A stretch of DNA of 64,000 bases from a virus. Shown piece after piece: positions 58,154 to 60,771 of the stretch. Location of the stretch: positions 16,086 through 80,085 of the IMG/VR virus record IMGVR_UViG_3300043015_000560; one strand, written 5' to 3'. How positions within the stretch are numbered: the first letter of the stretch is position 1; each line of letters starts with the position of its first letter. Below the pieces are notes generated by a model. The model searched no databases, was not told the origin of the DNA, and saw nothing but the letters and a program-made list of their open reading frames with translations. A program made the position numbers and the translations under genes.

Positions 58154-59419
58154 ATGTATCTTTCAGAAGAACTACAAAACAAGTGGGAGCCCGTATTAAA
58201 GCACCCTGATCTTTCTGAGATCAAGGACGCTCATAGACGTGCTGTTACTACCGTTGTTCTTGAGAACCAAGAGAAAGCCCTCCGCGAGGAAAAGGCGGTT
58301 TTCAACGAAGCAACACACGCTAACCAGACAGGTTCAGGAATCGATAACTACGATCCTATCCTAATCTCTTTGGTAAGACGTGCATTACCAAATCTTATGG
58401 CATATGATGTCTGTGGTGTTCAGCCAATGACTGGACCTACAGGACTTATTTTCGCCATGAAATCTCACTATGCTAGCCAAACAGGCGACGAAGCATTATT
58501 TAACGAAGCAGACACTGACTTCTCAGGTGCAGGCACACACGCTGGATCTAATCCAGTAGACGGCGCTTACACTACTGGTAACGGTGTATCTACTTCTACA
58601 GCAGAAGGCTTTGGCGATACTACTACACTTAACGAAATGGCTTTCTCAATTGAGAAAACAACTGTTACCGCTAAGTCTAGAGCGCTTAAAGCAGAATACA
58701 CTATCGAACTTGCACAAGACTTGAAAGCTATTCACGGTCTTGATGCAGAGTCTGAATTGTCTAACATCCTCTCTCAAGAGATCCTAGCAGAAATCAACAG
58801 AGAAGTTATTAGAACAATTTACAAAGTCGCTAAAACAGGTTCTGCTTCTACAGCAACACCTGGTACATTCGACTTAGACGTTGACTCTAACGGTAGATGG
58901 TCTGTAGAACGTTTCAAAGGATTACTGTTTAACATCGAAAGAGATGCTAACGTAATTGCACAAGACACACGTAGAGGTAAAGGTAACTTTATTATCTGTT
59001 CAGCAGACGTTGCATCAGCAATGGCTATGGCAGGTGTTCTTGACTACACTCCAGCACTTTCAACTAACCTAAACGTTGATGACACAGGTAACACATTCGC
59101 TGGTGTACTTAACGGACGTTATAAAGTATACATTGATCCTTATTCCGCTAACACTGGAGCTGCTAGCCAGTTCTACACAGTTGGCTACAAAGGAACAAGC
59201 CCATACGACGCAGGTCTGTTCTACTGTCCTTACGTTCCTCTACAAATGGTTAGAGCGATTGATCCTAGCACCTTCCAGCCAAAAATCGGCTTTAAGACAC
59301 GTTACGGAATGATTGCTAACCCATTCGTAGTAGACGGTTCAGGTAACACAGACGGCGACAACTTTACAGCTGACAGAAACCAATACTACAGAAGTGTAAA
59401 AGTTTCTAACTTGATGTAA
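58154..59419 (+). CDS. gp23: Major capsid protein gp23
   Basis: DPILISLVRRA.PNLMAYDVCGVQPMTGPTGLIFAM; SRALKAEY..ELAQDLKAIHGLDAE; FQPKIGFKTRYG. Confidence 0.98.
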   Translation: MYLSEELQNKWEPVLKHPDLSEIKDAHRRAVTTVVLENQEKALREEKAVFNEATHANQTGSGIDNYDPILISLVRRALPNLMAYDVCGVQPMTGPTGLIFAMKSHYASQTGDEALFNEADTDFSGAGTHAGSNPVDGAYTTGNGVSTSTAEGFGDTTTLNEMAFSIEKTTVTAKSRALKAEYTIELAQDLKAIHGLDAESELSNILSQEILAEINREVIRTIYKVAKTGSASTATPGTFDLDVDSNGRWSVERFKGLLFNIERDANVIAQDTRRGKGNFIICSADVASAMAMAGVLDYTPALSTNLNVDDTGNTFAGVLNGRYKVYIDPYSANTGAASQFYTVGYKGTSPYDAGLFYCPYVPLQMVRAIDPSTFQPKIGFKTRYGMIANPFVVDGSGNTDGDNFTADRNQYYRSVKVSNLM

Positions 59420-59455
59420 GTCAAAAAAAAGAATTCCGTAACAACGGAACACTTT

Positions 59456-59483
59456 AAAGGGACTCTTAGGAGTCCCTTTTTTT
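59456..59483 (+). terminator. Rho-independent terminator after gp23
   Basis: AAAGGGACTC-TTAG-GAGTCCCTTT plus T tract. Confidence 0.9.
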
Positions 59484-59503
59484 GTGCCTTCAATCTTATA
59501 ACT

Positions 59504-59511
59504 TATAAATA
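59504..59511 (+). promoter_or_regulatory. T4 late promoter for lipoprotein gene
   Basis: TATAAATA. Confidence 0.8.
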
Positions 59512-59557
59512 GTAGTGTCTTTACATTTAAGTGAAGACTAAACCAGAGGTATAATAA

Positions 59558-59833
59558 ATGAATAAATTATTCACTATTATTGCAGTCCTCGGTTTTGTAG
59601 TTTTATTACCTTCATGTGCTTCAGTTGGAGCAGTTATAGAAGGTGGTAAAGACGTGACTACAAGTATAGTTGATACATCTGTCAAAACAGCGGGTAACAT
59701 TGGTACGGCTGTTCTTAGAGATGCCTCTGACATTGTTAATACAGCAGCAGATGCAGCTGAAGGTGTCGTAGATACAGTAGTTACGGAGATTGATAAGCAA
59801 ACCGACGAGCTTCAAGAACCAAAAAAGGACTAA
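59558..59833 (+). CDS. Putative lipoprotein with amphipathic helical repeats; candidate -1 frameshift extension to 59940
   Basis: MNK + hydrophobic stretch + LPSC lipobox; ends CCA AAA AAG GAC TAA. Confidence 0.8.
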   Translation: MNKLFTIIAVLGFVVLLPSCASVGAVIEGGKDVTTSIVDTSVKTAGNIGTAVLRDASDIVNTAADAAEGVVDTVVTEIDKQTDELQEPKKD

Positions 59834-59943
59834 GGATTTTCTCTATTCGCAACGAGAAAAGACAAGCCGATCAAGACATTAAAATTCTAGTTAAACGGAT
59901 ATTAAAGTATTGTGAGGATAATCCAAAAGAGTGCGAATAAACT

Positions 59944-59966
59944 AGGGCAGGAAACTGCCCTTTTTT
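59944..59966 (+). terminator. Rho-independent terminator
   Basis: AGGGCAG-GAAA-CTGCCCT plus T tract. Confidence 0.9.
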
Positions 59967-59971
59967 ATCTT

Positions 59972-59979
59972 TATAAATA
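59972..59979 (+). promoter_or_regulatory. T4 late promoter
   Basis: TATAAATA. Confidence 0.8.
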
Positions 59980-60022
59980 GTAGGTAAGCACAAGGAAGTG
60001 TTTATTTTTACAATGGAGAGAA

Positions 60023-60184
60023 ATGGCTAAATCATGGCAAAACACAAAGAACGCACTTAGACACATAGTTAAAGGTACATCACAAGGCGATGGTGGCAGA
60101 GGGCGAAAAACAAAACAAAACACCAGTACAATGAACAAACATAGAAGACGTTCATTTAAGAAATATAGAGGACAGGGCAAATAA
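60023..60184 (+). CDS. Small basic protein (53 aa, ends KKYRGQGK)
   Basis: Missed by ORF track; GGAGAG SD; MAKSWQ...STMNKHRRRSFKKYRGQGK*; TAATG coupling to gp3. Confidence 0.8.
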   Translation: MAKSWQNTKNALRHIVKGTSQGDGGRGRKTKQNTSTMNKHRRRSFKKYRGQGK

Positions 60185-60771
60185 TGGCATTGGACAAGAC
60201 ATTAAATATAACAGAAGCAGACTTTGATGCAGGTAACCCTAGTGAGTTAGACTATCTAAAGCCTAATGGGTTTAAGTTTCTTGTCCACAATTTACCTAAT
60301 GTTTCATTCTTTTGTCAATCAGCAAACATACCTGATATGACAATGGGCTCACCAGTAGTAGCAACACCGCTAGTTGATTACTTCGAACCAGGCGATAAAA
60401 TACAGTTTGGAGAGTTATCAATTAGATTCCTCATACAAGAGAACATGGCTAACTACACAGAGCTCTATGAGTGGCTAAGAGGTTTGGGCTTCCCAGAAGA
60501 CCATACCGAATACAAAAAGTTTACAGAATCACAAGGGTACCGTTTCCCAGACATTGCTCCTCACAAACAAGGATCCTTAGGCGAGAAGAGTGATGCAACA
60601 TTGTTTATTTTAGATAGTAATAATGTAGCCAAATCTAAAATCATATTTCAAGATGCATTCCCAATTGCTCTAAGTGGCTTGGACTTTGACATCTCTTCTG
60701 GCAATACAGAGTACTTCCAAGGGATTGCCTCTTTTAGGTATAGACAGTATATTATATCTACTAATATATAA
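60184..60771 (+). CDS. gp3: Tail tube terminator/completion protein gp3
   Basis: YLKPNGFKF...LPNVSFFCQSANIP...PGDKIQFGELSIRFL..ENM.NY.E...SDATLFILDS...FP..LSGLDF. Confidence 0.9.
   Translation: MALDKTLNITEADFDAGNPSELDYLKPNGFKFLVHNLPNVSFFCQSANIPDMTMGSPVVATPLVDYFEPGDKIQFGELSIRFLIQENMANYTELYEWLRGLGFPEDHTEYKKFTESQGYRFPDIAPHKQGSLGEKSDATLFILDSNNVAKSKIIFQDAFPIALSGLDFDISSGNTEYFQGIASFRYRQYIISTNI

Follow-up and report, generated by a model that had tools for sequence, protein, structure and literature searches.

A small late lipoprotein gene of an uncultured marine T4-like phage very probably contains a programmed -1 ribosomal frameshift site, the heptamer A_AAA_AAG, through which one gene would yield two proteins. 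The DNA analysed (64,000 nt in total, referred to as the window) is part of an 80-kb fragment of this phage. The fragment is 48% complete, and its major capsid protein is ~70% identical to the homologues of Methylophilales phage Melnitz and Pelagibacter phage HTVC008M. The lipoprotein gene forms a self-contained unit that is placed between gp23 (58154-59419) and a tail gene. The features of this unit and its left boundary are as follows.

59456..59479, plus strand: intrinsic terminator of gp23, a 10-bp stem followed by a T run.
59504..59511, plus strand: T4-type late promoter motif TATAAATA, read from the sequence.
59545..59549, plus strand: Shine-Dalgarno-like AGAGG, 8 nt 5' of the ATG, read from the sequence.
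59558..59833, plus strand: 0-frame lipoprotein ORF of 91 aa, from the ORF list and a 56-sequence alignment.
59821..59827, plus strand: slippery heptamer A_AAA_AAG in the X_XXY_YYZ phase, read from the sequence.
59827..59940, plus strand: -1 extension of 37 codons and a stop, from the sequence, conservation, pN/pS and AlphaFold2.
59837..59860, plus strand: stem-loop of 7 bp with a 10-nt loop, a candidate frameshift stimulator, from the sequence and folding.
59944..59967, plus strand: closing intrinsic terminator (stem 59944-59961 and a T run), 3 nt past the -1 stop.

The sequence TATAAATA is the T4 late promoter, and the terminator of gp23 sets the lipoprotein unit apart from the preceding major capsid gene. 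Between the lipoprotein ORF and the closing terminator, 110 nt contain no called gene. A first-pass annotation of this DNA had described a self-contained unit composed of a late promoter, a lipoprotein ORF and a terminator, and all of these elements were found in place. A second TATAAATA motif is located immediately 3' of the closing terminator (in the region 59971-60184 of the window) and is followed by an ORF for a very basic 53-aa protein (60023-60184), which abuts the tail gene, shows a weak match to phrog_17967 and is not covered by RNA contigs in the four RNA runs examined.

The last codons of the lipoprotein ORF are ccA AAA AAG gac taa, and the heptamer ends 3 nt before the 0-frame stop (59831-59833). 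Between 59797 and 59937 the -1 frame is free of stops and of the start codons ATG, GTG and TTG, and its stop is at 59938-59940; the predicted products are thus 91 aa and 127 aa (90 + 37) in length. In these respects the sequence bears out the first-pass annotation, which had noted A-AAA-AAG at the end of the ORF with a hairpin 9 nt further on, and a start-less -1 frame of 37 codons that stops at 59940, 3 nt before the terminator. The open -1 frame in one genome is, by itself, weak evidence, because the probability of a -1 frame remaining open for at least 35 codons past the stop, calculated from the stop density of this 38% GC window, is ~0.11. In-phase copies of A_AAA_AAG or G_GGA_AAG are rare in the long ORFs of the window, occurring 3 times in 19,183 codons and accounting for 3 of the 65 Lys-Lys pairs, and therefore the chance of finding one within the last four codons of a given gene is ~6e-4. 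Both heptamers are highly shift-prone in E. coli (reviewed in PMC5009743). No Shine-Dalgarno-like frameshift stimulator was evident upstream of the slip site in the window.

The heptamer and the tail are inherited together. A scan of IMG/VR with the lipoprotein yielded 80 loci, 53 of which (including the window) are distinct over the stretch concerned. Of these, 43 combine an in-phase heptamer (A_AAA_AAG or G_GGA_AAG) with a -1 tail that terminates in Y-C-x-x-x-P-x-x-C, and the other 10 have neither heptamer nor tail, a terminator or the next gene following directly. Discordant loci, with either the heptamer or the tail alone, were absent (0 of 53; 2 x 2 table, 43/0/0/10). The heptamer of the 43 tail-bearing loci is located 0-3 nt before the 0-frame stop, and the -1 frame continues beyond it for 30-58 codons. 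The most telling case of co-loss is presented by L002-L005, whose lipoproteins are 89-90% identical to that of the window and are encoded in the same gp23 context; these loci have no tail, the stop codon is succeeded by a terminator, and CCT AAA CAG is what remains of the slip site. The first-pass annotation had asked whether homologues lose the heptamer or the open -1 frame, and the two were found to be either kept together or both absent.

A second scan, seeded with the tail motif, identified 35 distinct loci, 21 of which were new. All 35, including several loci with a lipoprotein body far more divergent than those in the first set, encode the lipoprotein in frame 0 and the tail in frame -1. 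A canonical heptamer is present in 33 of the 35 loci (19 of the 21 new ones, the other two having weakened sites), and when both sets are pooled, 62 of 64 distinct tail-bearing loci contain a canonical in-phase heptamer. Because related loci are not independent, these counts overstate the number of independent events, and the lipoprotein tree requires only ~4 state changes, namely ~2 switches between the heptamer types and ~2 gains or losses of the heptamer-plus-tail state. The synonymous sites of the heptamer are fixed. In the codon that precedes the slip, CCA was used in 7 of 7 cases, with CCT favoured one codon upstream (10 of 13); where this codon is GAA or GAG, A-type sites have GAA (14 of 14) and G-type sites have GAG (4 of 4). 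The final codon is invariably AAG (26 of 26), although AAA predominates nearby.

The tail might instead be a separate small gene, expressed through non-canonical initiation or termination-reinitiation and not as a slippage fusion. Several loci are compatible with such an arrangement. L088 (1400-1614) and L089 have the weaker site A_GAA_AAG, at which only the A-site tRNA could still slip (A_AAG), and their -1 frame is open for 74 codons, with an ATG located upstream within the lipoprotein ORF; this lineage may be leaving canonical slippage. TTG, GTG or ATG occurs before the helix core of the tail in 4 of the 43 loci. In addition, the 176-aa protein P0135, encoded on a single 1.3-kb ENA contig (1286 nt), combines a tail almost identical to that of the L096 type with an unrelated N-terminal part in the same frame, and this N-terminal part may resemble the end of a tape-measure-like protein; P0135 represents either a real domain transfer or an assembly chimera. 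However, ATG, GTG and TTG are all absent before the core in 39 of the 43 loci, and no start position is conserved. The frame of the tail is always exactly -1, and the synonymous sites of the heptamer are fixed and decay upon tail loss. Furthermore, a lone tail would have no signal peptide, yet its conserved cysteine pair suits the periplasm. In many loci the -1 frame is closed by a stop immediately 5' of the heptamer, and therefore the frame of the tail can be entered there only via the slip site. On these grounds a separate gene is very unlikely, and fusion to the lipoprotein by slippage is preferred.

The tail is under purifying selection as a peptide. Its pN/pS was 0.33 in the -1 frame, compared with 1.31 and 1.54 for the remaining two frames (16 pairs), and this selection is confined to the -1 frame. 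The tail consists of a variable basic linker, an amphipathic helix and an end of the form Y-C-x-x-x-P-x-x-C, in which Y28, C29, P33 and C36 are invariant among 35 sequences; the CxxxPxxC end pointed out in the first-pass annotation is thereby confirmed. An AlphaFold2 model of the tail, based on a shallow alignment, showed a pLDDT of 88 (93-97 over residues 11-37) and predicted a helix followed by a short C-terminal turn that places both cysteines within one hook. Foldseek comparison of this model with the PDB gave no match. The tail contains no hydrophobic stretch long enough to cross a membrane.

These data also bear on the possibility that no recoding takes place, the unit being either a single 127-aa ORF broken by an indel or by decay, or an ORF followed by a non-coding 3' UTR or a small RNA in which a frame is open by chance. 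Homopolymer runs are indeed error-prone, and a -1 frame open for 35 codons has the probability of ~0.11 in the window given above. Nevertheless, the same frame break is found in 64 distinct loci from many metagenomes, some of them without a long homopolymer, and identical words of the unit are present in fourteen DNA runs and six RNA runs. No in-frame fusion of lipoprotein and tail was found among 143 protein clusters of 50-160 aa, the longer members of which have miscalled N-termini, or among 53 representatives obtained when 1.84 billion proteins were searched exhaustively with a profile. The absence of an in-frame fused form from both cluster sets (~200 clusters together) therefore excludes sequencing error and recent gene breakage as explanations. 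Selection on the peptide in the -1 frame only, and the lack of an Rfam family match (nothing came near the gathering score for the unit), likewise speak against a non-coding region. An arrangement without recoding is hardly credible on this evidence, and the frameshift with isoforms of 91 and ~127 aa, as proposed in the first-pass annotation, is supported by both the co-conservation among homologues and the selection on the tail.

The hairpin downstream of the heptamer in the window is composed of TTTTCTC (59837-59843), a 10-nt loop and GAGAAAA (59854-59860), and follows a 9-nt spacer. It is weak (-7.1 kcal/mol, z = -0.7), being the weakest of its group. In most loci, a stem-loop begins 5-7 nt past the heptamer (31 distinct sequences, mean z of -2.5), and the stem sequences vary between subgroups of relatives. 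In a 12-sequence alignment, compensatory double changes were observed at 4 of the 9 consensus pairs, one of which has five pair types. No hairpin was found near the slip sites of L058 and L068. The downstream RNA hairpin is thus a supportive but tentative feature.

Sequences of the unit were also found in RNA data sets. Between 67 and 76% of the sampled words of the unit were recovered in six metatranscriptome runs. RNA contigs from four runs or studies span 59532-59935, 59532-59927, 59563-59934 and 59537-59907; they are separate from the gp23 contigs, which end at 59382-59438, and contain no indel at the A run. Contigs from two studies start at 59532, just past the late promoter motif, which is a weak hint that this promoter is used, and the extent of the contigs weakly suggests an mRNA in which the entire tail region is present; such contigs can prove neither transcript ends nor the absence of carried-over DNA, and they hide rare variants. 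The uncovered stretches (59459-59531 and 59940-60235) are not evidence of transcript ends.

A protein identical to the proposed fusion would be produced if RNA polymerase slipped and added an A within the run of six or seven A residues, generating in-frame fusion mRNAs. The window has a run of 6 A, and many relatives have 7 A. Efficient transcriptional slippage in bacteria needs runs of ~9 or more, however, and the runs observed here fall below this length. The G_GGA_AAG sites, with only three A and three G residues, keep the same arrangement, and polymerase slippage needs neither the phase of the heptamer nor a downstream hairpin. The RNA contigs show no indel at the run, though contigs hide rare variants. 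Transcriptional slippage is accordingly regarded as a highly improbable source of the long form, and ribosomal slippage on the heptamer remains the preferred explanation.

The ORF starts with a signal peptide and the lipobox L-P-S-C at residues 17-20, the codon for Cys20 being located at 59615-59617. Cys20 is invariant in 56 aligned sequences, and the preceding positions fit [LVI][ASTVI][GAS]-like residues; by its sequence, the product is a predicted bacterial lipoprotein and a putative substrate of signal peptidase II. The residues following the lipid-anchored Cys are Ala-Ser, which predicts outer membrane localization according to the sorting rule for E. coli lipoproteins. The 56-sequence alignment contains 19 invariant columns, and the conserved blocks of the body are C-A-S-V-G-A-V-I-E-G-G-K and D-K-Q-T-D-E-L-Q. 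The mature body is acidic (14 D+E versus 6 K+R). Spectral analysis of hydrophobicity in the family alignment showed only one peak, at 3.70 residues (~11/3), which none of 1000 shuffles reached, and the ~11-residue amphipathic periodicity suggested in the first-pass annotation is therefore real. AlphaFold2 predicted one long helix for the 91-aa form with a confidence too low for fold comparison (pLDDT 59).

Searches of 50,697 cultured phage records with the unit (blastn and tblastn), of PHROGs and Pfam with both the lipoprotein and the tail, and of PDB sequences with a profile of the lipoprotein all gave no match. When all 56 family members were compared with Pfam, only weak compositional matches appeared (e.g. 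Senescence, ApoL, Synuclein and Phasin). The families concerned are amphipathic-repeat, lipid-surface-binding proteins, and we read these matches as a common amphipathic-repeat character and not as homology. An Atlas lead assigning the lipoprotein to DUF6726 (score 0.89) was not confirmed by Pfam. The lipoprotein profile also matches 6-14 separate stretches in each of P0140 (2783 aa), P0157 (1163 aa) and P0163 (1103 aa), and the amphipathic repeat therefore occurs as long arrays elsewhere as well.

The genomic context of the lipoprotein gene is variable. The gene follows gp23 in the window and in L001 and gp32 in L038-L042, and in ~19 loci it is located behind two small membrane proteins and before a nuclease. 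In ~19 distinct relatives, it lies between FecR-domain/curlin-repeat genes and a gene for a CHASE2 adenylate/guanylate cyclase, with CsgG nearby. This curli-like synteny is not universal, there being at least three other contexts (gp23, gp32 and TM57/TM81-nuclease). The 80-kb fragment containing the window, which is 48% complete, has no CsgG, and among the neighbour genes of the relatives only gp32 is present in it.

Details of three of these neighbourhoods are recorded here. In L010 (860-5495), genes for a FecR-domain protein, a curlin-repeat protein and a 685-aa fusion of a CHASE2 sensor and an adenylate/guanylate cyclase adjoin the frameshifted lipoprotein gene; the same block is found in L006, L013, L022, L029, L058 and L063, and CsgG is located further upstream in L022 and L058. 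A sensor cyclase is unusual in a lytic marine phage. In L043 (2509-3332), genes for a 57-aa single-pass membrane protein, an 81-120-aa membrane protein and the frameshifted lipoprotein form a three-gene module, which is conserved in ~19 distinct loci (e.g. L026, L028 and L029) and precedes nuclease or IscU genes. The two membrane protein neighbours (TM57 and TM81) had no match in PHROGs or Pfam. The tail-less homologue in L035 (1452-3163) overlaps (ATGA) a gene for a 160-aa glycine-rich membrane protein, phrog_1544, followed by an 81-aa ORF, a phage lysozyme gene (Pfam E-value of 2.5e-46) and a 91-aa coiled-coil ORF. The lysozyme gene is two genes away from the lipoprotein homologue, and this segment looks like a lysis cassette. 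The 160-aa ORF product was presumed by us to be a possible 3TM holin, an assignment that had no support in Pfam, phrog_1544, a family of unknown function, being the only match.

Taking the sequence features together, we consider the protein to be, in all likelihood, an envelope-anchored amphipathic helix lying on a membrane surface and made in two forms, whose ratio would be set by the slip. Envelope remodelling tied to the phage curli-like cluster is a tentative guess at its function. Lysis and superinfection exclusion are less favoured alternatives of equal rank, besides other roles; for these two and for outer-membrane disruption, all suggested in the first-pass annotation, the analysis speaks neither in favour nor against. 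Hints from the context come only from the curli-like and adenylate cyclase genes near the gene in many relatives and from the lysozyme gene near the tail-less homologue in L035. The neighbours of the gene in the window are gp23 and the small basic ORF, and neither an i-spanin gene nor a C-terminal transmembrane helix, the marks of a spanin system, was found. One may also imagine, as a rather improbable elaboration, that the frameshift sets the stoichiometry of a late two-form envelope lipoprotein in a curli-like, cyclase-linked envelope system, in which the short form coats the membrane and the disulfide-closed hook of the rare long form tethers or recruits a partner. If this were true, the two-form lipoprotein would be a new kind of recoding-tuned device for envelope remodelling by phages.

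The expression of the gene may be envisaged as follows. Most ribosomes on the late, probably monocistronic mRNA would stop at 59831-59833, giving rise to a 91-aa precursor that would become 72 aa after lipoprotein processing. A fraction of the ribosomes would slip back by one base on A_AAA_AAG, where two tRNAs, both tRNA-Lys, would re-pair with AAA AAA, probably aided by the stem-loop 9 nt downstream. The slipped ribosomes would add 37 codons and produce a 127-aa precursor (108 aa when mature). The efficiency of this event could be very low. The short and long forms would share a lipid-anchored, acidic, amphipathic 11/3 helix, to which the long form would add a basic linker, a second amphipathic helix and the C-terminal hook with its cysteine pair, which could become disulfide-bonded in the periplasm. 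If lambda G/GT and T7 10A/10B are taken as a guide, the slip may fix the ratio between a bulk short form and a minor long form, and the tail may act as an adaptor or a cross-linking end.

The frameshift mechanism itself is classical textbook knowledge, and no published report of its occurrence in this lipoprotein family was found; our literature search yielded no report of frameshifting in a phage lipoprotein or in pelagiphage-type phages. To our knowledge, few conserved programmed frameshifts are known in tailed phages outside the tail assembly chaperones. The present case concerns recoding in a predicted secreted envelope protein, conserved throughout a broad radiation of abundant marine phages whose relatives infect SAR11 and OM43. 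Because gene callers report the short ORF alone, none of the ~200 predicted-protein clusters contains the conserved tail, and comparative recoding signals can recover such hidden parts of proteins. With two heptamers and varied hairpins, the family also offers natural variation in compact form for testing how efficient frameshifting is in non-model hosts.

With respect to the neighbourhood, the hypervariable region of pelagimyophages has been described to contain CsgG, CsgF and hypothetical proteins in a curli-like (type VIII secretion) cluster; neither the lipoprotein nor a frameshift is mentioned for this region (Zaragoza-Solas et al. 2020, PMC7029224). The lipoprotein gene is carried in that region by ~19 relatives, whereas in the window it stands alone between gp23 and the tail gene, on a fragment without CsgG. 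The frameshifted lipoprotein may thus serve as a handle on this puzzling cluster.

As a predicted small outer-membrane lipoprotein of a phage, the product resembles lambda Bor, T5 Llp, Cor and the Rz1-type o-spanins, whose genes often form self-contained cassettes that include a promoter and a terminator. Cysteines in the periplasm are required by spanins, and the tail of the lipoprotein also has a conserved cysteine pair. No similarity to these proteins was detected, however, in Pfam, PHROGs or the PDB profile search, and unlike spanins, the lipoprotein has no partner i-spanin gene and no C-terminal membrane helix, its body being an acidic amphipathic helix and not a proline-rich coil. We know of no report that Bor, Llp, Cor or an Rz1-type lipoprotein uses a frameshift.

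Among known frameshift systems, E. coli dnaX has A_AAA_AAG read by tRNA-Lys and a stem-loop a few nt downstream, and yields two products at a set ratio (PMC5009743). The lipoprotein site shares the heptamer and has a candidate stem-loop downstream. The two differ in outcome: the shifted frame of dnaX stops almost at once and shortens the protein, whereas the lipoprotein would be lengthened by 37 residues. Moreover, dnaX has an upstream Shine-Dalgarno-like stimulator, none being evident at the lipoprotein site, and the gene families are unrelated. T7 gene 10A/10B is similar in that it is a late gene with a -1 slip near its end, which places a short C-terminal extension on a minority of the product; the T7 protein is, in contrast, a cytoplasmic structural protein with a different slip site and no homology to the lipoprotein. 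In lambda G/GT, which uses G_GGA_AAG, the lipoprotein is not matched in role: it is a predicted secreted protein and not a tail chaperone, its gene does not precede a tape measure gene, its tail is short (31-64 aa), and a downstream hairpin is usually present. Several traits are nevertheless common to both systems. The slip site lies in the last codons of the first ORF, the long form is a C-terminal extension and may, by analogy, be a minor form acting with a major short form, the heptamer G_GGA_AAG is used by part of the lipoprotein family, and the arrangement is kept across very divergent phages while the sequences drift.
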